Part shown: piece by piece, positions 1-64,000 of the stretch
Layout of the letters: every line of letters begins with the position of its first letter
How positions within the stretch are numbered: position 1 is the stretch's first letter
Source: Spirochaetia bacterium
GTDB lineage: Bacteria > Spirochaetota > Spirochaetia > SZUA-6 > Bin103
Assembly: GCA_965208575.1 (NCBI GenBank)
Contig: CBDBOV010000002.1
Coordinates: forward strand, 704,001 to 768,000
Reading direction: 5' to 3'
Length of the DNA stretch: 64,000 nt
The notes under the pieces: generated by a model
What the model saw: only the letters and a program-made list of their open reading frames with translations
Told to the model about the DNA's origin: nothing
Database searches by the model: none
Program-made: the position numbers and the translations under genes

Positions 1-91
1 GCCGCTCGCCGCCGAGGTGCAGGCGTTCGTCGCTGCCGTGGCCCCCGCCGATTCCTGACCGCCGGAGTGAAGATCGCACGGGAACAGGCCA

Positions 92-712
92 TTGCGTAGC
101 CGGCACATGGCGATGGCACTTGAAGAGTTCCGGCTCCTGAAGAGGAAACCGGGGTGGAAGTACGAGTATTGGAACGGTGAGGCACACATCTCGCCGGGAC
201 ATCGGGTGGTCACCATGTCCCTCGACATAGAGCCACGCTCCTGCCAAAGCCCTTGTCAGATCGGGCCCGTGGTGACGCGGCGCGAAGCGGAGTTGATTGC
301 CGCCTACTTGGCGGCCTTCAGAGACACCATCGAGTACTGCGATTGGGAGGAGGAGAGAATCGCCGATTCGGCCAACAAGAGCGTCGTCGAATTTCTTGCC
401 GGTGAACGCGGCGATCCTCTCGCGGCGTCACGCCTGGCTCTGATCTGCCATCCCGAAGCCGACGGGAGAGTGGTGGGTGGTGCTGCCCTCCTGGTCGAAA
501 CGGATGACAAATGTCCACTCTTGGATATGCTCTTCGTTGCTCCGGAGTGGCAACGCCGGGGGATAGCCACCGCCTTGGTGTCGTCGGCGGTCAATCAATT
601 GCACGGCCGGGGATACAGGCGTCTGAAGAGCCGGTACATGCTCGGCAACGACAAGAGCCGGGCCTGGCACGAAGGGTTCGGATTCTCTCCCATCCCCGAA
701 GGTAGACCATAG
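92..712 (+). CDS. GNAT family N-acetyltransferase
   Basis: Acetyl-CoA motif LFVAPEWQRRGIATALV and C-terminal N..S..W....GF; start could be ATG at 107. Confidence 0.85.
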   Translation: MRSRHMAMALEEFRLLKRKPGWKYEYWNGEAHISPGHRVVTMSLDIEPRSCQSPCQIGPVVTRREAELIAAYLAAFRDTIEYCDWEEERIADSANKSVVEFLAGERGDPLAASRLALICHPEADGRVVGGAALLVETDDKCPLLDMLFVAPEWQRRGIATALVSSAVNQLHGRGYRRLKSRYMLGNDKSRAWHEGFGFSPIPEGRP

Positions 713-836
713 AGCCCCGCAGGGGTCCGAACGCCGGTAACAGCAGAACTGGCATGGCCGGAATCGACGACCGACAGCTTGCAGGAGCGCACGACTGGCG
801 GCCAACTCCGCACGCGGCCACGGCGTGGAGGCGGCG

Positions 837-3449
837 CTACCGCGACGGCTCGGGCGGCGGAGCTGCTCCGTAGCCGTGGCACATGCGGTGGTGTGCCAGG
901 CACGCGAGAGCCAGGTTCTCCGGCTCCGGGCCGCCCCCGTCGGCAACCGGCAGCAGGTGGTGGATCTGTAGCAGGTGGGACGAATTGCAGCGGCGACCGG
1001 TGAGCGGGTCCCGATAGCAGCAGCGCCCCCCGTCGCGCAGCCAGACGTGACGCCGGACAGCCGCCGGAATGGAGCGCCGCGGCGGCGACCGGCGCGGGCC
1101 GAGCGGAGCATCGCGGGTGCACTGCGGCGATGCTCCCCCCGGTGAGCCGCCCGCCCCACGCGCAGGCGGCACGCCGCTGACCAACTTCGGCGCCGCAGCC
1201 GTGGCCAACCGGATCGGCATGGCACCAGTACCGTCGGCGGAGCCGTCGCCGGCCAACTTCGGCGCCGCAGTCGTGGCCGGCCGGATCGGCGTGGCACCAG
1301 CGCCGTCGGCGGGGCCGCCGCTGACCAACTTCGGCGCCGCAGTCGTGGCCGGCCGGATCGGCGTGGCACCAGCGCCGTCGGCGGGGCCGCCGCTGACCAA
1401 CTTCGGCGCCGCAGTCGTGCCCGGCCGGATCGGCGTGGCACCGGCGCCGTCGGCGGGGCCGCCGCCGGCCAACTTCGGCGCCGCAGCCGTTGCCGGCCGG
1501 ATCGGCGTCGCATCAGCGCCATCGGCGGGGCCGCCGCCGGCGCTCCGACCCTCCGGCGCCGCAGCAACGGCGGGCGGGGCCGAAGCAGCGCCACCCGCGC
1601 GGGTGCCAACTGCCCGTGTACCGCCCGCCGGGGCGGCGGGCGCAACGCCGCGCACCGGGCGAGCGTTGGGGGACGCCGCCGCCCGCGGCAGCTCCCCGGC
1701 GGACGCGGGCGCGCCCCGTGGCGCCGGAGTATCGCCGCCCCCACCCACGGCGGCCGCCGCCACGACCGAGGGTGTGCTGGTCCGCTCCCGCCGCGACGAT
1801 GCTGCCGTGCCGCCCGAACGCCCCCGCCTGCCACCGCCGCCGCGCGGGTCGTGCCGCGCCACCGCCTCGCGCACCAGCCGCGCCACCAAGTCCCCCCACG
1901 ACATGCGCGGGTCGACGTGCGACAGCCAGTTCTTCAGTTGGCGCAGTCCCTGCTCGCACTCCTGGTCGATGCTCACCTTCAACGTGTAGCGGTCCGGCGC
2001 CACCGCACGCAGCGTGTCGCGCGGCGGCGCCACCTGCGGAGCGGCACTGGCCAGCAGGCCGGCGACCTGGCGCGTGGTCATGCCGGCGGCCTGCTCGATC
2101 AGCTCGCGCTGCCGCCGCGGGTGCAGCAGCGCGGCGGCGGACAACGGCCCGGCGGACCGCTCGGGGCTGGAACACGGTTCCGGGTTGGAACAAAGTTCCG
2201 GGTTCCGATCACCCCGCGACGGCGCCGGTGCGAGCGCAGCGGTGCGCCGCGGCTCCGATGCGGCCACGACCGGCAACGGGACCGGCTCGGCGCCACTCGC
2301 CGGCGGTGGAAGTGGCGCGGCCGGGCCTTGGTCCGAGGAGGCCACGGCGGGACCGGGAGCGCGCAACGGTGCCCGTGCAGCCGCGTGGCTCGCCACCGGC
2401 ACCACCGGCGTGGTCGCCGCCTCGTTACCCGTGAGCCCGGGCCGCGGTACACGCCCCGGCGCCGCGGGCGGTGGCGCGTGCAGGGTGGTGGGCGTCGAAG
2501 CCGGTGCAGCGCCCGAGGTGGCGGCACTCGAGTCCAATCGGCCCACCGGCTGCGCACCCGCGGCTGCCGGGCCGGCACCGACTGCCGCCGAGTCGTCCGA
2601 CGACGGCCTGCAACGGTCGCTCTCCGCATGCCGGTCCCCGCGGCCTCCGGCGTCACCGGGCGACCGCGCCACCGGCCCGTCCGGCGGTCGGCTGCAGCCG
2701 TCGCTCACGGTGTGCCGGTCTTCGCGGCCCCCGGCGGCACGGGACGACCGCGCCGCCGAGTCGTCCGACGATGGCCTGCAACGGTCGCTCTCCGCATGCC
2801 GGTCGTCGCGGCCTCCGGCGTCACCGAGCGACCCCGCCACCGGCTCGTCCGACGATGGTCTGCAACGGTCGTTCCCGGTATGCCGGTCCCCGCAGCCCCC
2901 GGCGTCACCGAGCGCCCCCGCCTCCTGTTCGACGGCGGCCACGCCGGGCCGCGCCGATGCCGTCCCCGCCGCGGCACCGGCCATCCCCGCTCCCGACGCT
3001 TCGCCATCCTGGTCTCCCGCTCCGCCCGGCGCAGCAGGTAGCCCATGCAGACCTTGGCAGCGCTCCTGATCGACGGGCGCGCTCGCTCTCCTGCACTGGC
3101 GCTCGGCGGCGCCAAACGCGGTCTCCAACTGCGCCGCCGACGTCACACTCAGCTCGCCGCTGTGCAGCATGGCCCGCACCCAGCCATGCCGCCGGCACAG
3201 CCTCATGGTCTGAATACGCCGTTGCGCGGCCGCATCGGTGAAGCGCAACTCCCGCACCGCGTAGTCGAACAGGCTCGAGAACCCGCGCCGCAGCGCCAGC
3301 CCGCGACGGTCGATCTCGTCGAGATGGTCCAGGATGTGCACTTCGAGGCCGCGCTGGTTGGCCGCCAGGCGCCTGGTCTGCTCGAGGAGCTGCTGATCAC
3401 CGAGTGAGTTGAAAGGTCGTCTGCCGGTCCCGCCGGTCATGTTTAACAT
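837..3449 (-). CDS. HNH endonuclease with DUF222-like helical N-terminus and low-complexity repeat linkers
   Basis: N-term LGDQQLL...HLDEIDRRGLALRRGFSSLFDY...AAQRRI; C-term RRSIPAAVRRHVWLRDGGRC...C...LQIHH..P...GG....NL...C..HH. Confidence 0.85.
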   Translation of the reverse strand: MLNMTGGTGRRPFNSLGDQQLLEQTRRLAANQRGLEVHILDHLDEIDRRGLALRRGFSSLFDYAVRELRFTDAAAQRRIQTMRLCRRHGWVRAMLHSGELSVTSAAQLETAFGAAERQCRRASAPVDQERCQGLHGLPAAPGGAGDQDGEASGAGMAGAAAGTASARPGVAAVEQEAGALGDAGGCGDRHTGNDRCRPSSDEPVAGSLGDAGGRDDRHAESDRCRPSSDDSAARSSRAAGGREDRHTVSDGCSRPPDGPVARSPGDAGGRGDRHAESDRCRPSSDDSAAVGAGPAAAGAQPVGRLDSSAATSGAAPASTPTTLHAPPPAAPGRVPRPGLTGNEAATTPVVPVASHAAARAPLRAPGPAVASSDQGPAAPLPPPASGAEPVPLPVVAASEPRRTAALAPAPSRGDRNPELCSNPEPCSSPERSAGPLSAAALLHPRRQRELIEQAAGMTTRQVAGLLASAAPQVAPPRDTLRAVAPDRYTLKVSIDQECEQGLRQLKNWLSHVDPRMSWGDLVARLVREAVARHDPRGGGGRRGRSGGTAASSRRERTSTPSVVAAAAVGGGGDTPAPRGAPASAGELPRAAASPNARPVRGVAPAAPAGGTRAVGTRAGGAASAPPAVAAAPEGRSAGGGPADGADATPIRPATAAAPKLAGGGPADGAGATPIRPGTTAAPKLVSGGPADGAGATPIRPATTAAPKLVSGGPADGAGATPIRPATTAAPKLAGDGSADGTGAMPIRLATAAAPKLVSGVPPARGAGGSPGGASPQCTRDAPLGPRRSPPRRSIPAAVRRHVWLRDGGRCCYRDPLTGRRCNSSHLLQIHHLLPVADGGGPEPENLALACLAHHRMCHGYGAAPPPEPSR
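1177..1560 (-). repeat. 72 bp (24 aa) coding tandem repeat, ~5 units
   Basis: ccaacttcggcgccgcag at 1181, 1253, 1325, 1397, 1469; unit APKLVSGGPADGAGATPIRPATTA. Confidence 0.95.
2585..2920 (-). repeat. 84 bp (28 aa) coding tandem repeat, 4 units
   Basis: tgcaacggtcg-like core at 2609, 2693, 2777, 2861; unit GDAGGRxDRHxESDRCRPSSDD. Confidence 0.9.
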
Positions 3450-3480
3450 GTCTTAAATATAACACTGGTCTGTAGATAGC
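3450..3480 (-). promoter_or_regulatory. Extended -10 promoter (TGtTATATT) 6 nt before the HNH ATG; probably leaderless
   Basis: Minus strand gtgttatatttaagacATG; equivalent motif in copy 2. Confidence 0.55.
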
Positions 3481-3958
3481 ACTTTCTTGCAGGTCCTCGA
3501 CCCGGTACCGGCAGCGCCCGTGGAGCGCGAATTGGCGGCTCCAGGGGCACGCGCTCGGCCACTTGACGGGCGCACACCATTGCCGGACTTCACGGCCCGC
3601 CAGGGGCCTTCAGCGGCAGCGGAAAAGTGCGTCAACCCCTGCGCCCGATTTTCTGCAGTTATTTTGGTGCAGGTCGAACTCCGGCCACCGCGGCACGCAG
3701 GAACCACCCCACGCCGCAAAGATGGTCCGACCCTCCCGGTACGTGAGCCCTGACGACCACCGGCGCCGCGGCAGCCTGCCCGGTCCCCCATCTGCTGCCG
3801 TGCCGACCGGAGCGGTGGGGTGAGACCGGTGCGTGCCGACTTCGTCAACCGCCACCACCGCCTTTCGCAATCGCACCGGCGCCCGCAGGTGCAAGAGGAC
3901 GCGTGTACCCCGATTGCGGTAGCATCGCGCCTGAGAGAGCGAGAGGGGGAGCATCGTC

Positions 3959-4396
3959 ATGAGCGAGTACATTCCGAGTCCGGCGCAGTGGGTGCGCGAC
4001 CAGGTGGAGCTGTATGAAGGCAGCGGCGGCACCGAGGGGCTGACCCTGCGCGATACCGGGTTGCCGGTGATCATCGTGACGCACACGGGCAACAAGACCG
4101 GCGCCGTCCGCAAGACGCCGCTGATGCGGGTGGCGGACGGTGACGGTTACGTGCTGATCGGATCGCAGGGAGGCGCGCCGAAGAATCCGGTGTGGGTGTA
4201 CAACCTGCGCGCCAACCCGGCGGTGACGATCCGCGACGCGACCTCGGTCCAGGAGATGCGGGCGCGCGAGGTGCACGACGACGCGGAGCGGGCGCGGCTG
4301 TGGGTCCTGGCCGTGGCCGCCTTTCCGCCGTACGCCGACTACCAGGACAAGACCACGCGCCGGATACCGGTGTTTCGAGCCGAACCCGTCGCCTGA
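3959..4396 (+). CDS. Deazaflavin (F420)-dependent nitroreductase family protein (Ddn-like)
   Basis: Motifs G.KTG..RKTPL, GSQGGAPKNPVWVYNLRANP, YADYQ.KT.R.IPV. Confidence 0.9.
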   Translation: MSEYIPSPAQWVRDQVELYEGSGGTEGLTLRDTGLPVIIVTHTGNKTGAVRKTPLMRVADGDGYVLIGSQGGAPKNPVWVYNLRANPAVTIRDATSVQEMRAREVHDDAERARLWVLAVAAFPPYADYQDKTTRRIPVFRAEPVA

Positions 4397-4408
4397 TCCG
4401 GCGCCATC

Positions 4409-5239
4409 ATGGGATCGCTGGACGGCAAGGCCGCGCTGGTGACCGGGGCCGGCGGGCGCAACGGCATCGGCCGGGCGGTGGCGCTGCGGCTGGCGGAGGA
4501 CGGCGCGGACGTGGCGGTGAACGACCTGGTCGCCAGGCCGCGCGAGGGCAGCGACTGGGGAGGGCTGCCGGCGCTGGCCCGTGAGGTCGAGGCTCTGGGG
4601 CGCCGGTCGCTGGCCGTTACCGGCGACGTGGGCGACGCGGCGCAGGTGCAGGCGATGGTCGACCGGGTGGTCGACCAATTGGGCAGCCTGGACATCCTGG
4701 TGACGAACGCCGGCACTCCGGCCGGCCGCGACCGGGTGCCGATCGTGGAGTTGGAGGAGCAGCACTGGGACCGGGTGCTGCGGGTCAACGCCAAGGGCAC
4801 GTTCCTGTGCTGCCGGGCGGCGGCGCGGGTAATGATCGGCGCCGGTCGCGGCGGCCGCATCATCACCATGTCATCGGTTGCGGGCAAGCAGGGCCGGGCG
4901 CGGTTCGGCGCCTACGCTGCCTCCAAGTTCGCCGTCGTGGGGCTGACGCAGGCGCTCGCGCACGAGCTCGGCCCGCATGGCATCACCGTCAACGCGTTGT
5001 GTCCCGGCGTGATAGATACCGAGCGCTACCACGACATCGCGAACGCCACCCGCGACTCCGACACCTCCACCGAGGAGCGGCGCGCGCGCCTGTTCGCCGG
5101 CGCCGCCCGCGCCACGCCGCTGGGGCGGATCGGCAGCGCGGCCGACGTCGCCCGCGTGGCGGCGTTTCTGGCCGGCCCGGACAGCGGCTTCGTCACCGGC
5201 CTTGCCGTGCCGGTGGCCGGCGGCCTGTACATGCAGTAG
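4409..5239 (+). CDS. SDR family oxidoreductase
   Basis: TGAGGRNGIG, TNAG, YAASK motifs. Confidence 0.95.
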   Translation: MGSLDGKAALVTGAGGRNGIGRAVALRLAEDGADVAVNDLVARPREGSDWGGLPALAREVEALGRRSLAVTGDVGDAAQVQAMVDRVVDQLGSLDILVTNAGTPAGRDRVPIVELEEQHWDRVLRVNAKGTFLCCRAAARVMIGAGRGGRIITMSSVAGKQGRARFGAYAASKFAVVGLTQALAHELGPHGITVNALCPGVIDTERYHDIANATRDSDTSTEERRARLFAGAARATPLGRIGSAADVARVAAFLAGPDSGFVTGLAVPVAGGLYMQ

Positions 5240-5336
5240 CCGCGCCGCGCCGCCCCGCGCCGCCGGCACCGTTCCGGTTGGTTGACCGGGGCGGGGTGCG
5301 TCGCTAAGGTTCCCCGTTGTCGGGGATCGAAGCGCC

Positions 5337-6335
5337 GTGATTCAGTACTTCATACGCCGCGTCGGCTACATGCTGGTAACCCTGCTGGGAATATCGATCC
5401 TGGCGTTCGTCATCATCCAGGCGCCGCCCGGCGACTATCTCGACATCTACATCCAGCAGCTTCGCGAGCGCGGCATCGAGACCGACCGCGAGGAGCTGGC
5501 CGGCCTGGAGGCGCGCTACGGGCTCAACCAGCCGGTACTGGTCCAGTACTTCAAGTGGATGGGCAACCTGATCACGCTTGACCTGGGCAAGTCGCTGGCC
5601 ACGCAACAGAGGGTGATCGACATCCTCGGCGAACGGGTGCCGCTGACCGCCATGATCACGCTGCTCACCACCGTGTTCACCTTTGCCGTGGCGATACCGA
5701 TCGGCATCTACGCCGCCACCCACCAGTACTCGCTGACCGACTACTCGGTGTCGACGCTCGGCTTCATCGGCCTGGCGACGCCCAACTTCCTGCTCGCCCT
5801 GATCCTGATGTTCCTGGCCAGCCGCTGGCTGGGGGTCAGCATCGGCGGCCTGTACTCGCCGGAGATGGTGACCGCGCCGTTCAGCTTGGCCAAGCTGTGG
5901 GACCTGATCAAGCACCTGCCGGTGCCGATCATCGTGGTGGGCACCGCCGGAACCGCGGGGCTGATCCGCATCATGCGCGCCACCATGCTCGACGAGCTGC
6001 GCAAGCAATACGTGATCACGGCGCGGTCGAAGGGCGTCGAAGAGGGGCGCCTGCTGTTCAAGTACCCGGTGCGGATCGCGGTCAATCCCCTGGTCAGCAC
6101 CATCGGCTGGCTGCTGCCGGAGATCATCTCCGGGGAGACCGTCACCGCGGTCGTGCTGAGTCTGCCCACCGTGGGGCCGCTGCTGCTCACCGCCCTGCTG
6201 CAGCAGGACATGTACCTGGCCGGCAGCATCATCATGGTGCTGAGCCTGCTCGTCGTGATCGGGACGCTGATCTCCGACATGCTGCTGGCGGTGGTCGATC
6301 CGCGCATCCGGATGGAGCGCAAGGCGGCGGCGTGA
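5337..6335 (+). CDS. Peptide/oligosaccharide ABC transporter permease (DppB/OppB-like)
   Basis: N-term FIRR...PPGD, YGLNQP..VQY..W; EAA-like YVITARSKG; C-term DPRIR. Confidence 0.93.
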   Translation: MIQYFIRRVGYMLVTLLGISILAFVIIQAPPGDYLDIYIQQLRERGIETDREELAGLEARYGLNQPVLVQYFKWMGNLITLDLGKSLATQQRVIDILGERVPLTAMITLLTTVFTFAVAIPIGIYAATHQYSLTDYSVSTLGFIGLATPNFLLALILMFLASRWLGVSIGGLYSPEMVTAPFSLAKLWDLIKHLPVPIIVVGTAGTAGLIRIMRATMLDELRKQYVITARSKGVEEGRLLFKYPVRIAVNPLVSTIGWLLPEIISGETVTAVVLSLPTVGPLLLTALLQQDMYLAGSIIMVLSLLVVIGTLISDMLLAVVDPRIRMERKAAA

Positions 6336-7468
6336 GCACGGGTCTCGACCTGCCGGTACCGGAAACCGCCGCCACCGACCAACGGCAGGAGCAGTACTTC
6401 GTCGCCTCCCAGTGGCAACTGGTGTGGCGCAAGTTCCGCCGCCACCACCTGGCGTTGCTGGGTATGAGCATCCTCGCCGTGCTCTACCTCCTGGCGGCGT
6501 TCGCCGAGTTCTTCGCCCCCTACGACAAGCTGCTGCGCAACACCGACCTTCGCTTCGCGCCTCCGCAGCGGATCCGGATTTTCGAGAACGGCCGGCTCAG
6601 CGCGCCCTTCGTGTATGGCTACACCACCGAGCGCAACCCGGAGACCTTCCGCGAGGAGTTCACGGTCGACGAGAGTCAGCGGTTCCGCATCGGCCTGTTC
6701 GTGCGCGCCGGCGAGTACCGCCTGTGGGGCCTGTTCAAGACCGACCTGCACTTTTTCGGCACCCGCGACGAGGGCGGTTACGTGTACCTGCTCGGTACCG
6801 AGCGGCTCGGCCGCGACGTGTTGTCGCGCATCATCATCGCGTCGCGCATCTCGCTGAGTGTCGGCCTGGTAGGGGTGTTCATCGCCTTCATACTCGGCTG
6901 CCTGCTCGGCGGCCTGTCAGGCTATCTCGGCGGCTGGGTGGACAACACCATCCAGCGGCTGGTGGAGATCCTGATCTCGGTGCCCACCATCCCGCTGTGG
7001 CTGGCGCTGAGCGCCGCCCTGCCCGCGACCTGGTCGATCGTTGCCGTCTACTTCGGCATCACGGTGATCCTGTCGCTGATCGGCTGGACCGGTTTGGCGC
7101 GCGTGGTGCGCGGCAAGCTGCTGGAGGTGCGCGAAGCCGACTTCGTGCTGGCCGCGCGCATCGCCGGCAAGCGCGAGATGCCGATCATCCGCGAGCACCT
7201 GCTGCCCTCCTTCACCAGCTACCTGGTAGTGGACATGTCGCTGCGCATCCCGGGCATGATCCTCGGCGAAACCGCGCTGAGCTTCCTCGGTTTCGGCATT
7301 CGCCCGCCGGCGGTGAGCCTCGGGTCGCTGCTGATCGACGCCCAGAACGTGGCCACCCTCACCACCCACCCGTGGATGCTGATGCCCGCGCTGCTGGTGA
7401 TCGTGATCGTGCTGTGCTTCAACTTCGTCGGCGACGGCCTGCGCGACTCCGCCGACCCCTACCACTAG
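6332..7468 (+). CDS. ABC transporter permease (DppC/OppC-like)
   Basis: GTG overlaps the upstream TGA; LLGTERLGRDVLSR, ETALSFLG, FNFVGDGLRD. Confidence 0.93.
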   Translation: MSTGLDLPVPETAATDQRQEQYFVASQWQLVWRKFRRHHLALLGMSILAVLYLLAAFAEFFAPYDKLLRNTDLRFAPPQRIRIFENGRLSAPFVYGYTTERNPETFREEFTVDESQRFRIGLFVRAGEYRLWGLFKTDLHFFGTRDEGGYVYLLGTERLGRDVLSRIIIASRISLSVGLVGVFIAFILGCLLGGLSGYLGGWVDNTIQRLVEILISVPTIPLWLALSAALPATWSIVAVYFGITVILSLIGWTGLARVVRGKLLEVREADFVLAARIAGKREMPIIREHLLPSFTSYLVVDMSLRIPGMILGETALSFLGFGIRPPAVSLGSLLIDAQNVATLTTHPWMLMPALLVIVIVLCFNFVGDGLRDSADPYH

Positions 7469-8115
7469 GCGCCCGGGACGAAGGTGAGGTAGCGCAGCAG
7501 GGTGCCGGCCAGCGCCATGAGCCGGGAGAACACCGGTACGCCGACGATGCCGAGCAGGATCAGCCCGAGCAGCAGGTAGGAGCCGAAGCGCGCGTTGTAG
7601 TGGCGGTAGGCGTCGGCGGCGCGCGCCGGCAGCAGGTGGGGCAGGATGTAATGGCCGTCGAGCGGGCCGAGCGGGATCAGGTTGAACAGCATCAGCAGCA
7701 GGTTGACCCGCGCGAGCAGCACGAAGAAGGTGACCGGCCCCTCGGCAAAGAACAGGTCCACGCCGGCGGCGCGCAGCAGCAGGAACAGGTTCCAGGTAAG
7801 CACGGCGAGCAGCAGGTTGGCGGCCGGGCCGGCGGCGGCAATCCACAGATCGGCGCGCGGAGTGCGGAAGTTGCGCGGGTCGGTGGGCACCGGGCGGGCG
7901 TAGCCGAAGCCGACCAGGACCACCATCGCCAGGCCCATCGGATCGATGTGGCGCACCGGGTTGAGGGTGAGCCGGCCCGCGTACTCGGCGGTGCGGTCGC
8001 CGTTCAGCTTGGCCACGTAGGCGTGGCCGAATTCGTGCACCGACAGCGATGCGATCAGCGCCGCCACCAGGAGCCCGAACAGCAGGACCTCGCCCCGAAA
8101 CAACAGCTCGATCAT
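7465..8115 (-). CDS. Site-2 protease (M50) family protein
   Basis: HEFGH, GRLTLNP, FNLIPLGPLDG. Confidence 0.93.
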   Translation of the reverse strand: MIELLFRGEVLLFGLLVAALIASLSVHEFGHAYVAKLNGDRTAEYAGRLTLNPVRHIDPMGLAMVVLVGFGYARPVPTDPRNFRTPRADLWIAAAGPAANLLLAVLTWNLFLLLRAAGVDLFFAEGPVTFFVLLARVNLLLMLFNLIPLGPLDGHYILPHLLPARAADAYRHYNARFGSYLLLGLILLGIVGVPVFSRLMALAGTLLRYLTFVPGA

Positions 8116-8262
8116 CGCGACTCACGCCCCTCCAACAGCCAACGGCAAGACCTCGCCTCGAAACAGCAGCTCGATCATCGCGTCGCGAGCGCCTCCAACG
8201 TGAACGGCGGCCCCTCGCCGCGCAATAGCAGCTCGATCATCGTGCGGCGGATGCCTCGAGGT
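8087..8262 (-). repeat. Three imperfect 62-63 bp tandem copies of the NHL-stop/S2P-start junction
   Basis: cagctcgatcatcg at 8104, 8167, 8229. Confidence 0.85.
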
Positions 8263-9172
8263 CATGGCGCAGCACCACGTGGTGGTAGCGGTCCGCGGTG
8301 TACAGGGAGCCCGGCGCCCACGCCAGCGGCCCGATGATGGCGCGCCGGCCGAGGCTGACGTAGCCGGCGGCGATGGCGGGTTCGAAGGTGCCGTCCGGTG
8401 CGATCACCTGGATGCGGTAGTTGGAGCGGTCGGCCACGTACACGCGGTCGCGGTCGTCCACCACCAGCCCGGACGGGAAGATGAACGCGCCGCCGCTGCG
8501 CCCGCGCTCGCCCCACTCGGCCACGAACGCGCCCTCGGCGGTGAACTTCTGCACCCGGTGGTTGTGCGCGTCCGCGACCCACACGTTGCCGAACGAGTCC
8601 ACGGCAACGGCGCGCACCTCCCGGAACTCGCCGGGCCGTGGACCCTCGCGTCCCCAGGCGGCGAGGAAGGCGCCGTCGCCGGTGAAGCGCTGGATGCGGT
8701 GGTTGCCGGTATCGGCCACGTACACGCTCCCGTCCGGCGCCGCGGCGATCGCGCGCGGGCGGGCGAACTGCCCCGGACCGCTGCCGTTGCCGCCCCAGGT
8801 GGTCAGCAACTCGCCGGCGGCGCTGAACTTCTGCACCCGGTGGGTGGTGAACTCCACCGTGTAGACGGCCCCGTCGCCGCCGACGGCAAGCCCGCTCAGC
8901 CCGAGGAACTGCCCCGGCTCCGATCCCCAGGAGCCGAACGCGTCCACGAACTCGCCGTCGCCGGTCAGCTTCTGCACGCGGTGGTTGTCGGTGTCGGCGA
9001 CGTACAGAAACCCGGCGGCGTCGACGGCAATGTGCGCCGGGGTAAAGAACTCACCCGGCTCGAACCCGCGCGAACCGATAAGGGCTATCCTCTCGTCGTT
9101 GACCGCGCAACCCGCCCCGGCCACGACCAGGGCGAACAGCAGCAACAAACGGGTAGCGGCAATACGACGCAC
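8237..9172 (-). CDS. NHL-repeat six-bladed beta-propeller lipoprotein
   Basis: Lipobox-like VAGAGC; repeated G.GPGQF..P..IA...G.VYVADT.NHRIQ.F. Confidence 0.9.
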   Translation of the reverse strand: MRRIAATRLLLLFALVVAGAGCAVNDERIALIGSRGFEPGEFFTPAHIAVDAAGFLYVADTDNHRVQKLTGDGEFVDAFGSWGSEPGQFLGLSGLAVGGDGAVYTVEFTTHRVQKFSAAGELLTTWGGNGSGPGQFARPRAIAAAPDGSVYVADTGNHRIQRFTGDGAFLAAWGREGPRPGEFREVRAVAVDSFGNVWVADAHNHRVQKFTAEGAFVAEWGERGRSGGAFIFPSGLVVDDRDRVYVADRSNYRIQVIAPDGTFEPAIAAGYVSLGRRAIIGPLAWAPGSLYTADRYHHVVLRHDLEASAAR

Positions 9173-9335
9173 GGATCAATGGTCCGCAAGCAGCGCGCCA
9201 CAGGCAAGCCGGTGGCCTCCGCTGGCTATTGAATTCGCACAGCGGACGGGGGCGGCGCCGTGGGCGAGCGGAGGACGATGACTGGTACCTGATTTCGGGA
9301 TGCGTTGGGGTGACGAGAATAAGGGACCGTGACGG

Positions 9336-10080
9336 TCAATCGCCGCCCCGGTGGTGCGCGAACCAGGGGATGGCGAAGCCTACCAGCGCCTGTGCGGACA
9401 GCAGCGTGCAACAGGCTTGGCCGGCCAATCCGGTGCGGGTAGTCGTGTCCTGCCGCCCAAAGGCAGCGCCTACCTCATCGAAGTCGTGTTCATCAATGTC
9501 GGGCTCGCGGTAACTCACCCATCGCCGGACCCCGTCGACCAGGACCGGCGCGCCGGCCGGCTTGGTCTCCTGGTGGTCGCCGAGCGCGCGCCGTTCGGCA
9601 AAATGCAGCATGGTGTTGGTCCGGTGCCCGACCTTGCGCCCGACCCCCAGGAGCAAGACGTGGCCACCCAAGTCGTGGACCACCGACAGAGGCGATCCTT
9701 CGCCCATCGGATCCTCAAGCCGCTGGGCGGCGACGATCGGTGCCGCGTACCGCCCGAGGGCCGCGAACGAACAGGACGGATGATTGCTGCGAACCGCATC
9801 TGGCCAGGTACGGAATAACTCCGGGATAACGCCGATGAAGGTCGTGGGAGTGACGGCGGCGTCGAACGCCGGCATCGTCGCTCGGATCATCTCCCGCCAG
9901 GCAGACGGCACCGGCGGATTCTCCCATCCCGCCGGGTCGGACAGGCCCGTGGAATGAGCGGGCATGACTATGGTGCCGGTCGTGCCTACTGCCTGCAGCA
10001 GCGCCCGGATCACGGCAACCGGCCCGCCGCAGACCCAGCCGATGGCGCTCAACGAGGAGTGGACCAGCACGACCATCCCT
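9336..10080 (-). pseudogene. AAC(3)/YokD family N-acetyltransferase, 5'-truncated at the HNH element boundary
   Basis: GMVVLVHSSLSAIGWVCGG, GTIVMP, RSNHP..SFAA, NT.LH.AE; the codons upstream of GM are element sequence; an internal ATG at 10076 could still be used. Confidence 0.75.
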
Positions 10081-10288
10081 CTGCACCAAAAAAACTGCAG
10101 AAAATCGGGCGCAGGGGTTGACGCACTTTTCCGCTGCCGCTGAAGGCCCCTGGCGGGCCGTGAAGTCCGGCAATGGTGTGCGCCCGTCAAGTGGCCGAAC
10201 GCGTGCCCCAGGAGCCGCCAATTCGCGCCCCACGGGCGCTTCCGGGACCGGGTCGAGGACCTGCAAAAAAGTGCTATCTACAGTCCAG

Positions 10289-10303
10289 TGGTATATTTAA
10301 GGT
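10289..10303 (+). promoter_or_regulatory. Extended -10 promoter TGgTATATT; probably leaderless HNH transcript
   Basis: TATATT at 10292-10297, ATG at 10304. Confidence 0.55.
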
Positions 10304-12811
10304 ATGATGAACATGACCGGCGGGACCGGCAGACGACCCTTCAGCTCACTCGGCGATCAGCAGCTCCTGGAGCAGACCCGGCGTCTGGCGGCCAACCAGC
10401 GCGGCCTCGAAGTGCACATCCTGGACCATCTCGACGAGATCGACCGTCGCGGGCTGGCGCTGCGGCGCGGGTTCTCGAGCCTGTTCGACTACGCGGTGCG
10501 GGAGTTGCTGTTCACCGATGCGGCCGCGCAACGGCGTATTCAGACCATGAGGTTGTGCCGGCGGCATGGCTGGGTGCGGGCGATGCTGCACAGCGGCGAG
10601 TTGAGTGTGACGTCGGCGGCGCAGTTGGAGACCGCGTTTGGCGCCGCCGAGCGGCAGTGCCGGAGAGCGAGCGCGACCGTCGATCAGGAGCGCTGCCAAG
10701 GTCTGCATGGGCTGCCTGCTGCGCCGGGCGAAGCGGGAGACCAGGATGGCGAAGCGTCGGGAGCGGGGATGGCCGGTGCCGCGGCGGGGACGGCATCGGC
10801 GCCGCCCGGCGTGGCCGCCGTCGACCAGGAGGCGCGGTCGCTCGGTGACGCCGGAGGCTACGGGGCCCGGCACACCGAGAGCGACCGTTGCAGCCGACCG
10901 CCGGACGAGCCGGCGGCGCGGTCGCTCGGTGACACCGGCCACGGGGACCGGCATGCGGAGAGCGACCGTTGCAGCCCATCGTCGGACGACTCGGCGGCAG
11001 TCGGTGCCCGCCCGGCAGCGGCGGGTGCGCAGCCGGTGAGCCGATTGGACTGGAGTGCCGCCACCTCGGGCGCTGCACCGGCTTCGACGGCCGCCACGCG
11101 GCACGCGCCACCGCCTGCGGCGCCGGGGCGTGTACCGCGGCCCGGGCTCACGGGCTACGAGGCGGCGGCCACGCCGGTGGTGCCGGCGGCGAGCCACGCC
11201 GCTGCGCAGCACCTCGGCGCCCGGCATGGCGATGCGCTGCCGGCACGGCGGGAGCCGAGCGGAGCCGCCTGGCACTGTCCGGCACCCGTGCGCGCTCCCG
11301 GTGTCGCCGTGGCCTCCTCGGACCAGGGCCCGGCGGCGCCACTTCCGCCGCCGACGAGTGGCGCCGAGCCGGAACCGTTGCCGGTCGTGGCCGCACCGGC
11401 GCCGTCGCGGGGTGATCGGAACCCGGAACGGTGTTCCAACCCGGAACCGTGTTCCGGCCCGAAGCGGCCCGCCGGGCCGGTGTCGGCCGCCGCGCTGCTG
11501 CACCCGCGGCGCCAGCGCGAGCTGATCGAGCAGGCCGCCGGCATGACCACGCGCCAGGTCGCCGGCCTGCTGGCCAGTGCCGCTCCCCAGGTGGTGCCGC
11601 CGCGCGACACGCTGCGCGCGGTGGCGCCGGACCGCTACACCTTGAAGGTGAGCATCGACCAGGAGTGCGAGCAGGGGCTGCGCCAACTGAAGGACCTGCT
11701 GTCGCACGTCGACCCGCGCATGTCGTGGGGGGACCTGGTGGCGCGCGTGGTGCGCGAGGCGGTGGCGCGGCACGACCCGCGCGGCGGCGGTGGCAGGCGG
11801 GGGCGTGCGGGCGGCACGGCAGCATCGTCGCGGCGGCAGCGGACCCGCACACCCTCGGTCGTGGCGGCGGCGGGCGCCGGGGAGCAACCGCGGGCCGCGA
11901 CGACCCGCAACGCTGCCGGGGTGCGCGGCGTTGCGCCCGCCGCCCCGACGGGCGGTGCAAGGGCAGTTGGCACCCGCGCAGGTGCCGCTGCTTCGGCCAC
12001 GCCCGCCGTTGCTGCGGCGCCGGAGGGTCAGAGCGCCGGCGGCGGCCCTGCCGACGGTACTGATGCCACGCCGTTCCGGGCGGCCACGGCTGCGGCGCCG
12101 CAGTTGGCCAGCGACGGCTCCGCCGACGGTGCTGATGGGACGCCGACCCGGCCCGCCACGAGTGCGGCGCCGAAGTTGGCCGGCGGCGGATCTGTCGACG
12201 GCGCTGATGCGACGCCGATCCGGTCGGCCACGGCTGCGCCGCCGAAGTTAGTCAGCGGCGGCTCCGCCGCCGGCGCTGGTGCGACGCCGACCGGGTCGGC
12301 CACGAGTGCGGCGCCGAAGTTGGTCAGCGGCGGCTCCGCCGATGGCGCTGGTGCCACGCGCATCCGGTCGGCTACGACTGCGGCGCCGAAGTTGGCCGGC
12401 GGCGGCTCCGCTGGCAGCGCTGATGCGACGCGGATCCGGCGGGCTACGGCTGCGGCGCCGAAGTTGGCCAGATGCGTGCGGCCTGTGCGTGGTGCGGGCG
12501 GCACGGCGGGGGGAGCATCGCCGCGGTGCACCCGCGATGCTCCGCTCGGCCCGCGCCGGTCGCCGCCGCGGCGCCCCATTCCGGCGGCTGTCCGGCGTCA
12601 CGTCTGGCGGCGCGACGGGGGGCGCTGCCGCTATCGGGACCCGCTCACCGGTCGCCGCTGCAATTCGTCCCACCTGCTACAGATCCACCACCTGCTGCCG
12701 GTTGCCGACGGGGGCGGCCCGGAGCCGGAGAACTTGGCTCTCGCGTGCTTGGCGCACCACCGCATGTGCCACGGCTACGGACCAGCTCCGCCGCCCGAGC
12801 CGTTGCGGTAG
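10304..12811 (+). CDS. HNH endonuclease with DUF222-like helical N-terminus (paralog of 837-3449)
   Basis: Near-identical N-terminal, central and HNH blocks; linkers differ. Confidence 0.85.
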   Translation: MMNMTGGTGRRPFSSLGDQQLLEQTRRLAANQRGLEVHILDHLDEIDRRGLALRRGFSSLFDYAVRELLFTDAAAQRRIQTMRLCRRHGWVRAMLHSGELSVTSAAQLETAFGAAERQCRRASATVDQERCQGLHGLPAAPGEAGDQDGEASGAGMAGAAAGTASAPPGVAAVDQEARSLGDAGGYGARHTESDRCSRPPDEPAARSLGDTGHGDRHAESDRCSPSSDDSAAVGARPAAAGAQPVSRLDWSAATSGAAPASTAATRHAPPPAAPGRVPRPGLTGYEAAATPVVPAASHAAAQHLGARHGDALPARREPSGAAWHCPAPVRAPGVAVASSDQGPAAPLPPPTSGAEPEPLPVVAAPAPSRGDRNPERCSNPEPCSGPKRPAGPVSAAALLHPRRQRELIEQAAGMTTRQVAGLLASAAPQVVPPRDTLRAVAPDRYTLKVSIDQECEQGLRQLKDLLSHVDPRMSWGDLVARVVREAVARHDPRGGGGRRGRAGGTAASSRRQRTRTPSVVAAAGAGEQPRAATTRNAAGVRGVAPAAPTGGARAVGTRAGAAASATPAVAAAPEGQSAGGGPADGTDATPFRAATAAAPQLASDGSADGADGTPTRPATSAAPKLAGGGSVDGADATPIRSATAAPPKLVSGGSAAGAGATPTGSATSAAPKLVSGGSADGAGATRIRSATTAAPKLAGGGSAGSADATRIRRATAAAPKLARCVRPVRGAGGTAGGASPRCTRDAPLGPRRSPPRRPIPAAVRRHVWRRDGGRCRYRDPLTGRRCNSSHLLQIHHLLPVADGGGPEPENLALACLAHHRMCHGYGPAPPPEPLR
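12030..12470 (+). repeat. 72 bp coding tandem repeat, 6 units
   Basis: tgcggcgccgaagttgg-like motif at 12091, 12163, 12235, 12307, 12379, 12451. Confidence 0.92.
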
Positions 12812-12972
12812 CGCTGCCTCCACGCGGTGGCCGCGTGCGGAGTTGGCCGCCCGTCGTGCGCTCCTGCAAGCTGTCTGCCGTCGATCCCGGCCATGCGAAT
12901 TCTGCCGTTTCCGGCGTTCGGACCCCACGTGGGGTTGAGCAACGGTCGGGCGGCGTGCCACGGTGACCGACG

Positions 12973-13890
12973 ATGAAGGCACGAACGATCGAATATCAAC
13001 CGGGCGGAGGGGTGCGGCTGGTGGAGACGGCGGTTGCCGATCCGGGGCCGGGCGAGGTGCAGGTGCGGGCGGCGGCGTGCGGCATCTGTGCGTGGGACCT
13101 GTACACCTACCGGCACGGCAGCGACGCCCCGAGCGCGGCGCCCGCGGGGCACGAGGGGATCGGCCGGGTGCTGAAGGTGGGTCGCGGCGTCAGCGGCCTC
13201 GCCGAGGGCGACGCGGTGGTGGCGCGCGGCTTCGCCACGGTGCACAACGTGGCCGCCGAACGCGCGCTGCGTATCCCGGATACCGACATTCCGCTCGAGC
13301 GCTGGATCGTGGAGCCGGTGAGTTGCGTGGTCACCGGTCTGGACCACACCCGCGCCCGTGCCGGCGACCGGGTGGCGGTGATCGGCTGCGGCTTCATGGG
13401 ACTGATGCTGCTGCAGGGGCTGGTTCGCTCGTGCGTCCATCACCTGGCGGCAATCGACGTGAACCGCGACCGGCTGACCCTGGCGCGCAGCTTCGGCGTG
13501 GACGCCGCCTACCATCCCGAGGACGAGGGGCTCGCCGGCGAGGAGCCGTTCGACTGCGTGGTCGATGCTTCCGGCGCGCAGGCGGGCCTCGACCTGGCGA
13601 CCGGCCTGCTCGGCCGCGGCGGCGTGCTCAACCTGTTCGGCTGGAACCACGGCCGGCCCACGTTCGCCGGCGACCGCTGGCACCTCGGCGGCTTCACGGT
13701 GGTCAACTCCGCCCCCGGTTCCCGGATCCGCGACACCTTCCCGCCCGCGATCCGGCTCATCGCCAAGCGCATCATCGACCTGGAACCGCTCATCACCCAC
13801 ACCGTCCCGCTCGACGCCTATCCCGACCTGCTCGCCCAGGTGGCGGCGGGCGACCCCGGCTACATCAAGGGGGTGGTCACTCTCGACTGA
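12973..13890 (+). CDS. Zinc-binding alcohol dehydrogenase (MDR) family protein
   Basis: CGICAWD, GHEGIG, IGCGFMG. Confidence 0.9.
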   Translation: MKARTIEYQPGGGVRLVETAVADPGPGEVQVRAAACGICAWDLYTYRHGSDAPSAAPAGHEGIGRVLKVGRGVSGLAEGDAVVARGFATVHNVAAERALRIPDTDIPLERWIVEPVSCVVTGLDHTRARAGDRVAVIGCGFMGLMLLQGLVRSCVHHLAAIDVNRDRLTLARSFGVDAAYHPEDEGLAGEEPFDCVVDASGAQAGLDLATGLLGRGGVLNLFGWNHGRPTFAGDRWHLGGFTVVNSAPGSRIRDTFPPAIRLIAKRIIDLEPLITHTVPLDAYPDLLAQVAAGDPGYIKGVVTLD

Positions 13891-16101
13891 CGCGCGCGCC
13901 GAACAGGTACCGATACAGCATGAGCGCAAGCTGTGGATCGCGCTGCTCCAGCCGGATTCGGGCGTCCGGCGTCAGGTGCATCGTGCGGCACGTCTCGTCC
14001 GCGACCACCGACGCATCTTTCTCATGCAACGACCCGGACGGCCATACGACGCCGCCGGGGCGATACTGACTCATGCGCGCACCGTCGGCGTCGTAACCGG
14101 AAGCGCGCCCCGAGATCACCAATTGCAGACCGTCGTGCGGCGCTCCCGGCCCCTTCAGGGCGATGCCGGCGTCGTATCGGCATGCACTCGTCCACCGTTG
14201 CAGTTGCTCGGTCAGGTACTCGAAGTCGATCTGCCGCTCCAGGTAGCGGTCCAGGTCGCCGGCGGCGTGCTCCAGCAGCGCGGCGCGCCGACCGTGCGTG
14301 CGGTCTTCGTCTTCCTTCCACGCCGCGAGCACGATCTCCTCGCAGCGCTCCAGGGCGCGGTCCAGGTTCGGCTCCATCGGCAGCTCCGCGTACACGGAGG
14401 CGGACAGGTTGTGCTCGACACCGGTGCGCAAGGCCTCGGACGTCGCGCTCAGCACCACCCCCACCCCGGCCGCGTGCGCGGTCTGCATGAACCGGCACAG
14501 CACGTTCACGGCCGAGAAGTCGAAGCCGGACACTGCGGAGAAATCCAGAAGCAGACAGAGGGGACGCACCGGGCCGTGCAACTCCTGCCGGAGACGTTCG
14601 GCCAGCGGGGAGACACCGCCGAAGAACAGGTAGCCGCGCAGCCGGTAGGCGTGCACCCGCTCCCCTTCCTCCAGCAGGATGGCCCGGTCGGGCACGGGGC
14701 GCGCCTTGTTGCTGTGCCGTTCGCGCAGGGTGAACCGCGCCTCCACCGGATTGACGCCGCTGAGGCGCACCACGAAGAACACCAGGGTGGCCAGCATGCC
14801 GGCGCCGACTCCCTCCAGCAATCCGAACGCGGTGATGGCGACGAAGATCAGCACGATGATGCCGTATTCGGCCCAGGGCAGGCGGCGGCGGCTCTTCACC
14901 AGCCCCTCGTCCAGCATGCCGAGCCCGGCGAACACCAGGATCCGCCCACCAGAGCCGCCGGCACCAGCTCCAGCATGCCGTCGCCCAGGAACAGCGCGCC
15001 GCCGACCACCAGCGCGGCGACCACGCCGGTCAGCCGCGTGGCCGCTCCGAACAGCTTGCTGCGCAGCGACGCGGGCACGACGAGGGTCGCCACGGTGCCG
15101 CCGCCCAGGCCGGCGACGGCGCTGGCGACCCCCGTGACGCGAAACTCACGGTCCCAGTCCAGCTCCTGGTCGGCGGCCAGTTCCAGCCCGGCTATGTTCA
15201 GGACCACGCAGATGAAGGCCACCAGGATCAGCGTCAGCATGTGGGGAACCTGCCCGGCCAGCGCCGTCCACTCCACATGCGCCAGGTCGGCGGGGAGCAC
15301 CGAAGGCCACAGGCCGCCGTCGGCGGTGCTGGTCAGCAGCAGGCCCGCCGCCCGCGCCTCGTCGCCCGGTATCCCGAGCGAGGCGAGCGCGAGGTGGTAT
15401 CCGCCGACGGCGAGGGCGACGCTCACCGGCAGGATCAGCGGGTTGCGCCAACGCCTCATCGCCAGGTAGAGGGCGATTCCGTACACCGCTCCCGGGCTCC
15501 ATCTCCACAGCACGGAGGGTTCCAGCAGGGCGGGCAGCGCCCGCCAGTCGGGTTTCGCCCCCATCAGCGCCAGCGCCGCCAGGCACACCGCCCCGCCGAT
15601 GCCGGCGACGAATCCGCCGGCCACCGGGTAGGGGATGAAGCGCACCAGGTTGGCGAGCCGGAACCGTCCGATCAGGAGGCAGCATGCGCCGGTGGCCACC
15701 GCGCTGATCACCAGCGCGGCAACCGTGGTGACGAACAGCGCATGCCCCTCGGCGATCATGGAAAAGCCGATCGTGGCCATCACGATGACGAGCGCCGGCG
15801 ACAGCCCCGCGATCGCGCCGCGGTAGCCGCCGGCGAGCGCGATCACCAGGCACGCCGCGAAGTTCCCGAACAAGACCAGGCCGACGCCCTGGGAGGAGTA
15901 GGAAGCCAGCGGCCCGGAGAAGATGAAGCTGCCGAACGCCACCTGCGCCACCAGCAGCCCCAGGCCGGAGGTAAGGCCGGCCGACAGCGCCGCCAGCGCC
16001 CGCGCGGACGCCAGGTCGGCACGCAACTCGGACGCGAGATCCCGGATCAAGTTTCTCTTCGCTCCGGGTTCTGCTGCTGGTGAAGTGGAGGCTTGCGCCA
16101 T
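13877..16101 (-). pseudogene. SulP-family anion transporter with STAS and cNMP-binding domains, frameshifted near 14943
   Basis: FIPYPVAGGFVAGIG, D.DREF, LRGYLFFG, LLLDFSAVSGFD; two ORFs join as ...LVGG|ILVFAGL if one G is added; may be a sequencing error. Confidence 0.75.
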
Positions 16102-60747: not shown

Positions 60748-60799
60748 GCTGTAAGGCGACGGGGGACCGTGATGGTCCCCCGTCCTGCTTCGGCAGCGC

Positions 60800-61384
60800 C
60801 TAGCGCGCGGTGACGGGTTCGGGTTCGCGGGCGGGCTGGGCGGCGGCGCCGTTGCCGGCCGCGGCGACGTGGCGGGTGGCCTTGGCGTCTTGCAGGGCCT
60901 TGAGCACCTTGGGAGGTGACATCGGCACTTCGTACAGGCGCACGCCGACGGCGTCGTAGATGGCGTTGGCGATGGCCGCGAGCGGCTGCACGATGGCGTT
61001 CTCGCCGACGCCGCGGATGCCGTACGGGTGGCGCGGGTTGGGCACCTCGACCACCACGGTGTCGATCATCGGCAGGTCGAGGGTCACCGGCATGCGGTAG
61101 TCCAGGAAGCCGGCGTTCTCCATCACGCCGTCCTTGTCGAACAGGTACTCCTCGTTGAGCGCCCAGCCGATGCCCTGCACGGCGCCGCCCTGCATCTGGC
61201 CTTCCACGTAGCTCTTGTGCAGCGCGCGCCCGGCGTCCTGGCACACGGTGTAGCGAATCACGTCCACCTTGCCGGTGTCCGGGTCCACCTCCACGTCGCA
61301 GATGTGGGTGCCGAGCGCCGGCGCGGCGCCCTTGGCGTTCACCGCCGCGTCCGCCGCCAGCGGCCCGCCGGTCTGCGACGCCTC
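60800..61384 (-). pseudogene. 3' fragment of a xanthine dehydrogenase-family molybdopterin subunit (duplicate of 63476-64000)
   Basis: Near-identical to the gene end at 63476; the 5' part is replaced by unrelated sequence at ~61384. Confidence 0.88.
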
Positions 61385-63410: not shown

Positions 63411-63475
63411 ACGGCCTGAACCGCCCGCGGCCGGCGCCCCGGCCGGCGTGGCAGGGGACGGCGGCGCGGTCGTCC

Positions 63476-64000
63476 CTAGCGCGCGGTGACGGGTTCGGGT
63501 TGGCGGGCGGGCTGGGCGGCGGCGCCGTTGCCGGCCGCGGCGACGTGGCGGGTGGCCTTGGCGTCTTGCAGGGCCTTGAGCACCTTGGGAGGTGACATCG
63601 GCACTTCGTACAGGCGCACGCCGACGGCGTCGTAGATGGCGTTGGCGATGGCCGCGAGCGGCTGCACGATAGCGTTCTCGCCGACGCCGCGGATGCCGTA
63701 CGGGTGGCGCGGGTTGGGCACCTCGACGACCACGGTGTCGATCATCGGCAGGTCGAGCGCCACCGGCATGCGGTAGTCCAGGAAGCCGGCGTTCTCCATC
63801 ACGCCGTCCTTGTCGAACAGGTACTCCTCGTTCAGCGCCCAGCCGATGCCCTGCACGGCGCCGCCCTGCATCTGGCCTTCCACGTAGCTCTTGTGCAGCG
63901 CGCGTCCGGCATCCTGCGCCACGGTGTAGCGGATCACGTCCACCTTGCCGGTGTCCGGGTCCACTTCGACGTCGCAGATGTGGGTGCCGAGCGCCGGCGC
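63476..64000 (-). CDS. Xanthine dehydrogenase/CoxL family molybdopterin-binding subunit (3' part; continues beyond the window)
   Basis: VEVDPDTG.V, D.GRA....VEGQ.QGG..QGIG.AL.E, DY.MP, G.RGVGE, IANA. Confidence 0.92.
   Translation of the reverse strand, partial: APALGTHICDVEVDPDTGKVDVIRYTVAQDAGRALHKSYVEGQMQGGAVQGIGWALNEEYLFDKDGVMENAGFLDYRMPVALDLPMIDTVVVEVPNPRHPYGIRGVGENAIVQPLAAIANAIYDAVGVRLYEVPMSPPKVLKALQDAKATRHVAAAGNGAAAQPARQPEPVTAR

Follow-up and report, generated by a model that had tools for sequence, protein, structure and literature searches.

Genes of the DUF222-HNH type, of which REP13E12 of mycobacteria is an example, are multicopy genes encoding a helical N-terminal region and a C-terminal HNH domain. 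They have long been known as multicopy elements, and we know of no established way by which such DUF222-like/HNH repeat genes move. Mobile insertion cassettes, like other non-autonomous derivatives of insertion sequences (IS), have IS-type repeats and target duplications around a cargo gene, and carry no transposase. Elements of the IS200/IS605 group have subterminal hairpins and a Y1 transposase (TnpA), with neither inverted repeats nor target duplication. A passage of PMC10589994 names REP13E12 as a repetitive element of Mycobacterium tuberculosis, and excerpts of PMC3942029 describe p-MULT elements as having inverted repeats of 18–39 bp that end in C and target duplications of 8–9 bp. Our literature search, done partly by title, found no IS-type repeats or target duplications for REP13E12/DUF222. 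It also found no paper that links ISKra4 with HNH genes; the supplements of PMC3942029 might list such passengers.

Here we describe an HNH unit, termed E1, of which two copies (A and B) lie in the window, the whole 64,000-nucleotide stretch of DNA that was analysed. The genome of the window (G000) comprises 6.5 Mb in six contigs, and was compared with relatives, among them G001 and G007. Attention had been drawn to positions 10081 to 10303, upstream of one of the HNH genes, by a sequence-only reading that saw in them a nearly invariant, potentially structured left end and a candidate guide RNA. From sequence comparisons we hold, with moderate confidence, that this stretch is a double-stranded DNA protein-binding site plus a promoter, and that it lies within the left arm of a non-autonomous transposon derived from an IS.

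Copies and ends of the HNH element

Eleven copies of the E1 region are present in G000, and the region was found in four of the 41 relatives searched, G000 counted, the other three being of the same genus. Copy B lies on the plus strand, with an ORF of 835 aa at 10304–12811 and a right arm at 12812–12925; this arm includes the right terminal inverted repeat (12902–12925), and conservation of its final ~30 nt extends to the copies of G001. Copy A is full length and inverted relative to copy B. It occupies 723–3878 on the minus strand, with the outer left repeat at 3817–3878, the right repeat at 723–746, the ORF at 837–3449, and the counterpart of 10081–10303 at 3450–3672. The two copies are each other's closest relatives, with 95% identity over 858 nt. 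The window also contains a 300-nt direct repeat that is unrelated to the HNH element (60799–61098 and 63475–63774, 98% identical, 2676 nt apart).

Position 10081 had been taken as the left end of the element. This did not hold in the genomic set, where nine of the eleven copies extend upstream beyond the equivalent position: six of them run for about 206 nt to a common tip with the terminal inverted repeat, one for 141 nt and two for 106 nt. One further copy keeps about 20 nt, and copy B is without any outer arm. The stretch 10081–10303 is the promoter-proximal half of a non-coding left arm of about 430 nt. On the right, nearly all copies end sharply. The left tip begins with GGGTGGGAATGCG and the right tip, once reverse-complemented, with GGGTGCGAACGCC; the two make up imperfect inverted repeats, about 24 bp long and of the type 5'-GGGTG...CACCC-3'. 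Examination of 26 loci in G001 and G007 yielded 11 with both ends, and six of these were flanked by perfect target duplications, four of 8 bp found by script and two of 9 bp (L032 and L044) read from printed flanks; at L036, 6 of 8 positions agreed. Among the full-length copies of G000, perfect 8-bp duplications were recognised by eye in three of six, and a 7/8 match in one more. When 10081 was treated as the end of copy B, no target duplication was visible by eye (CCATCCCT versus CACGTGGG), and none was found either for a G001 copy that begins at the internal block (L030/L050).

A deletion appears to have taken the outer arm of copy B, and probably also the start of the gene that adjoins its truncated end. 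This gene is an ORF of the AAC(3) acetyltransferase family at 9336–10076 on the minus strand (Pfam Antibiotic_NAT, E 2.2e-80). The match starts at residue 4 of the ORF and covers profile positions 1–231 of 232, and the N-terminus of the protein is probably missing. A longer, TTG-started frame of the same ORF reads into element sequence.

No transposase gene was found in E1, whose ORF matches HNH models alone in Pfam and NCBIfam. A genome scan for the tip motif, however, revealed in G000 ten identical copies of a 1438-bp IS (here called IS1438), nine of which are flanked by perfect duplications of 8 or 9 bp. Its 434-aa protein scores 198.8 bits (E 1.6e-58) against the NCBIfam ISKra4 transposase model NF033572, just below the cutoff of 205. 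The outer left end of E1 aligns without gaps to the IS right repeats over about 58 nt, into the last transposase codons, and the right end of E1 is similar to the IS left repeat; the HNH gene thus sits between IS ends, antisense to the position of the transposase. The IS right repeat was found at 9 of 12 loci of IS homologues in other genomes, with the motif GGTTGACAyGATCA in all nine.

E1 therefore resembles a p-MULT4 element in its end repeats and in its duplications of 8–9 bp, and differs from one in the lack of a p-MULT4 transposase. Because E1 has no transposase and the partner IS encodes one, E1 is classed as a derivative and not as an autonomous member. Its ends are homologous to those of an IS in the same genome, its duplications have the same length, and it is without a transposase gene, which are the features of a non-autonomous derivative. 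E1 would most likely be mobilised in trans by the DDE transposase of the related IS1438.

Several further arrangements of such ends were noticed. At L013/L054 of G001, a canonical IS1438-type right repeat replaces most of the outer arm, with the junction about 75 nt ahead of the A-tract repeats, which shows that elements have exchanged left ends. In G000, two identical IS1438 copies are arranged head to tail, 8 bp apart and with the same 9-mer flanking them (C4:511218–512655 and 512664–514101). The pair resembles a tandem dimer or the integrated form of a circle junction, as expected for copy-out-paste-in elements. At C5:265363–265437, IS1438-type tips face each other just 75 bp apart, possibly a MITE-like derivative. 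A second ISKra4-like IS, of 1534 bp, is present in ten copies in G000 (for example at C5:20558–22091), with tips beginning GGGTGCATTC, 8-bp duplications, and a transposase of 478 aa that is 40% identical to that of IS1438.

The HNH genes fall into further subfamilies. E2, of 2.0–2.4 kb, has about 13 copies in G000 and encodes a protein about 40% identical to that of E1; its ends are of the same type, and perfect duplications were found at four of five end pairs. E2 copies that are 99–100% identical in the N-terminal domain share G000 with the ten identical IS1438 copies, a circumstantial sign of mobilisation in trans. A single copy of E3 was seen, in G003. The fourth subfamily, E4 (442–525 aa), has at least 14 copies in G011. 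In four of the eight E4 copies that were aligned (loci L100–L107), the inverted repeat is not visible, and homology starts only at the −35 box of the gene's own promoter, a canonical TTGACT-17-TATACT-6-ATG. The HNH family as a whole was found in 20 of 23 genomes of the same bacterial family and in none of the 17 genomes that represent the order's other families. At E≤1e-20, 13 of the 23 had an ISKra4-like transposase, and seven genomes contained the HNH family with no transposase match at this threshold. G001 has some 16–20 copies of E1, yet its best relative of the transposase is 35% identical and has different repeats; in G007 only a broken copy was found.

The conserved block and the promoter

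The two window copies, compared without gaps, differ at one position (10092) in the first 118 nt of the stretch and at ten in the next 105, exactly as had been counted before. Near-invariance of the whole 118 nt is a property of this closely related pair. Among nine close copies of G000, zero diversity is confined to 10101–10130: diversity was 0.000 in that block, 0.065 in 10131–10198 and 0.101 in 10199–10303, compared with 0.066 at third codon positions. Between G000 and G001, the block is 97% identical, against 56–70% for the remaining region and 72–76% for third codon positions.

The block, which contains a TTGAC core at 10118–10122 and corresponds to 3623–3652 in copy A, aligns gaplessly with the subterminal part of five IS right repeats; the 12–13 tip bases are not conserved. 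In copy A it is identical to the IS 25-mer at 19 of 25 positions, a score reached by none of 2000 shuffles, and a G001 copy matches the IS repeat at 20 of 25 positions by eye. The block is thus a tip-less, internal copy of the subterminal right inverted repeat of the IS. The place expected for its tip is occupied by A-tract/CTGCA repeat units at 10081–10100, where homology with copy A begins and copy B is truncated, and where diversity among the nine close copies is 0.106. The earlier proposal of a cis-acting end survives in one respect, since the invariant core does derive from a transposon inverted repeat. It fails in another, in that the core is internal, has no cleavable tip and is not the end of the element. 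The block recurs in E2 and E3 with different bases ahead of TTGAC (GGGG in E1, CCCC in E2, GCAC in E3), so that only AAAA...G...TTGAC is universal. A 4-bp stem or palindrome around TTGAC (GGGG...CCGC in E1 and the IS, CCCC...GGGG in E2) was considered and rejected by eye, being broken without compensation in single E2 copies and absent from E3.

Between the block and the promoter lies a spacer (10131–10250) of constant length and near-neutral sequence change, its diversity being 0.065–0.10 against 0.066 at third codon positions. From block to ATG, the region measures 205–208 nt in all 29 E1 copies and 205–206 nt in all 11 E2 copies. TTGAC precedes the −10 box by 174 nt in E1 and by 173–174 nt in all 11 scored E2 copies; it precedes the ATG by 186 nt in E1, in the single E3 copy and in one subgroup of E2. 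The interval between outer tip and block, in comparison, is variable, at 244 nt in E1 and 194 nt in E2.

Alignments revealed two short boxes common to E1 and E2 downstream of the spacer, GTCGAGGAC at 10252–10260 and, in the −35 region, GCTATCT at 10273–10279 (GCTATyT in both subfamilies). They are followed by an extended −10 box, TGGTATATT, at 10289–10297, which ends 6 nt before the ATG. The arrangement that had suggested a leaderless promoter here is real: TGGTATATT-N6-ATG occupies 10289–10306, and TATAnT-N6-ATG is present in 29 of 29 E1 copies, while in all 11 E2 copies the ATG follows TATACT by 6–7 nt. This constant distance is as expected for a leaderless mRNA, a prediction made from the sequences. 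No Shine-Dalgarno sequence was found before the HNH ATG, and a consensus scan for sigma-70-like promoters returned none in window 9900–10500 and none in 3450–4150 of L032. A weak terminator-like site is present on the minus strand at 10126–10109; it is not conserved in G001. We also examined a hidden ORF of 62 codons that starts at the TTG of TTGAC, reads up to the ATG and is open in many copies, and rejected it. Its positions show no codon periodicity (0.170/0.180/0.159), it has frameshifts or stops in several copies and a TAA two codons ahead of the ATG in the G000 copies, and in E2, where either 6 or 7 nt separate the −10 box from the ATG, no constant frame is maintained.

The mechanism that we favour runs as follows. 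E1 is a unit bounded by inverted repeats of the ISKra4/p-MULT4 type, with a DUF222-like/HNH gene as its only recognisable cargo. The block at 10101–10130, a copy of the IS right repeat that lies inside the arm and has no cleavable tip, is a candidate site for protein binding to double-stranded DNA. The most likely binder would be an ISKra4-family transposase, which at this block may bind without cutting. The block is held 173–174 nt from the extended −10 box, transcription would start at the ATG, and the rest of the stretch would act as a length-constrained spacer. Several observations speak against this mechanism. A transposase site alone does not account for the constant spacing to the promoter, when the tip-to-block interval varies, and the bases ahead of TTGAC change from one subfamily to the next. 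Simple hitch-hiking is further called into question by the many E1 copies of G001 in the company of only a distant transposase, by the seven genomes that have the HNH family with no transposase match at the threshold used, and by the E4 copies in which no inverted repeat is visible.

The HNH protein and alternative readings of the non-coding stretch

The 835-aa protein consists of three conserved domains, a helical N-terminal domain, a middle domain and the C-terminal HNH domain, joined by variable linkers that bear repeats. The HNH domain is its sole Pfam match (PF01844, 22.7 bits against a cutoff of 21.4). Its homologues number more than 555, almost all of them unnamed metagenome proteins. 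Pfam DUF222 (PF02720) did not match residues 1–132 at E≤10 or the whole protein at E≤0.01. A language-model feature search placed the protein near clusters named DUF222 (score 0.94, 190 shared features), a name borne by just 12% of the members. The analogy with IscB and its partner RNA, which had been drawn from the HNH domain, found no backing: the IscB model NF040563 reached 20.9 bits where the cutoff is 175, aligning only with residues 763–820, in the HNH domain, and RuvC and the other IscB parts are absent from the protein. In an AF2 model of an E2 protein, mean pLDDT was 51, and the block means of the helical N-terminal domain were 71–91. The top three structural matches of this domain (VIA) were the DNA-binding domains of Spo0J, KorB and ParB, with Z of 6.5, 5.6 and 5.6, rmsd of 3.4–5.0, and 88–100 residues aligned. 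Because the tool sets its trust level for helical folds above these Z values, the likeness is a lead only. Foldseek against the PDB gave nothing at E≤0.001, and a PDB profile search recovered the HNH domain only. The disordered linkers of both window ORFs contain tandem repeats of 72 and 84 nt (11967–12542, 1172–1609 and 2584–3003), whose number differs between copies, the ORFs being of 835 and 870 aa. The HNH motif (window 12650–12700) reads QIHH in the aligned E1 proteins of G000 and in three metagenome relatives, and QIDH in most members.

It now appears extremely unlikely that 10081–10303 is a structured non-coding or guide RNA partnering the HNH protein, or a set of single-stranded DNA hairpins, as was first proposed. 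The region is indeed long, length-conserved and non-coding, and the inverted repeats and the three CTGCA-plus-A-tract motifs reported in it are all present in the window sequence. Compared with mononucleotide shuffles, the only null used here, enrichment of inverted repeats is modest: 16 stems of at least 5 against 7.5 expected (reached by 23 of 1000 shuffles), five of at least 6 against 1.8 (79 of 1000), and one of at least 8 against 0.13 (90 of 1000). In the alignments, stems that can always pair exceed those of column shuffles (63 against 35±10, reached by 0 of 60), and six stems with one covarying pair each were found on the antisense strand of E2, a result matched by 1 of 40 shuffles. Against these signals, a search of window 1–14000 with Rfam gave no match at E≤1 in the region and two chance-level matches elsewhere. 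The proposed helices are 62–83% paired and are broken in the G001 and G007 copies, and covariation was not above shuffles; under a column-shuffle null that keeps phylogeny, five stems showed covariation against a mean of 4.3, as did 23 of 60 shuffles. The covariation tests are low in power owing to the few independent lineages, and a metagenome scan for further upstream regions gave four loci, one with an upstream flank, which were kept out of the alignments. Folding z-scores were no better than for shuffled sequences (+0.91 and −0.65 for the sense and antisense strands, and +1.28 for a copy from G001). RNAalifold assigned −17 kcal/mol to the 29 E1 copies with a covariation term of −1.3, and E1 and E2 have no common fold, their joint consensus reaching −1.4 and −2.9 kcal/mol on the two strands. 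Together with the near-neutral change outside the 30-nt block and the missing IscB parts, these results indicate that the conserved stretch is probably not an RNA. The neutral drift of the rest of the region would suit another reading, in which the block is a functionless fossil inverted repeat whose invariance stems from recent copying or gene conversion between copies, and the close relationship of copies A and B does explain most of the "118 invariant nt". We consider this very improbable for the block itself, given its zero diversity among nine copies whose third codon positions diverge by 6.6%, its 97% identity between species whose synonymous sites are 72–76% identical, and its retention at the same distance in E2 and E3.

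Two further readings give the block a function in expression of the HNH gene. TTGAC and the phased A-tracts could be the −35 and UP parts of a distal, IS-derived promoter, from which a long untranslated or regulatory transcript would cross the spacer. In the G001 and G007 copies TTGACA is a perfect −35 hexamer with A-tracts 13–25 nt upstream, and TTGACT serves as the true −35 box of the canonical E4 promoter. Such a promoter is nevertheless improbable, because no acceptable −10 box lies 16–18 nt downstream in any family and the sigma-70 scan was negative; its transcript would also be translated poorly, as no Shine-Dalgarno sequence precedes the ATG. The block may alternatively be an operator for the element's own protein, whose N-terminal domain would bind TTGAC and either regulate the leaderless promoter at a distance, in the manner of KorB or ParB, or guide the HNH nuclease. 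This is possible, if rather unlikely. It would agree with a block whose position is fixed relative to the promoter and not to the outer tip, with TTGAC-adjacent bases that differ across E1, E2 and E3 as the proteins do (~40% identity), with the Spo0J, KorB and ParB matches of the modelled helical domain, and with the wider distribution of the HNH family than of the transposase. The low Z values and the empty Foldseek search count against it, as does the E4 subfamily, which has no such far-upstream block. An operator also leaves the likeness of the block to the IS repeat unaccounted for, unless the protein evolved to recognise IS ends. Extending this thought, a ParB/KorB-like N-terminal domain might allow the HNH protein to recognise the TTGAC block of IS origin, and the protein's nuclease might propagate the cassette, by acting at ISKra4-type ends instead of or beside the DDE transposase, or by turning copies of the IS into HNH cassettes. 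We regard this as doubtful. It would account for the spread over 20 against 13 of the 23 genomes, for persistence where no close transposase is present, and for a block that is locked to the gene and not to the tip; if true, it would make the DUF222-like/HNH family a specialised parasite of a DDE transposon.

Comparison with known systems

The features of E1 point away from the systems that had been suggested for it. Hairpin ends of the IS200/IS605 type do not fit an element with inverted repeats and duplications of 8–9 bp, the proposed hairpins of which are not conserved and in which neither TnpA nor TnpB was matched. With IscB and the HEARO omega RNA, E1 shares an HNH domain beside a conserved non-coding stretch in a mobile element, and differs from them in having no RuvC, no Rfam match and no conserved fold. 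The candidate guide RNA can accordingly be struck from the list.

ISKra4, ISMich2 and ISAzba1, members of the p-MULT4 group of Mutator-like DDE elements, are like E1 in having 5'-GGG...CCC-3' repeats and 8–9 bp duplications, to the extent covered by excerpts of Guerillot et al. 2014 (PMC3942029). Unlike ISKra4-type IS, E1 has no transposase gene; it has an HNH gene in the opposite orientation, a left arm of about 430 nt and an internal, tip-less copy of the repeat. That this copy is kept at a fixed distance from the promoter of the cargo in three subfamilies is unusual, and raises the question of cross-talk between transposase, cargo protein and promoter.

In its overall design, E1 is like mobile insertion cassettes, with IS-type repeats flanking a cargo and an autonomous partner in the same genome. 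It departs from them in that its cargo belongs to a nuclease family that is multicopy across a bacterial family and that occurs in some genomes without visible repeats. The E1 family resembles REP13E12 in being multicopy (11 copies of E1 and about 13 of E2), with a C-terminal HNH domain and a helical N-terminus, and differs from it in leaving Pfam DUF222 unmatched. A related HNH family that has ISKra4-type ends and fresh duplications, beside an active-looking IS, thus offers such genes a testable route of spread, with the transposase supplied in trans.
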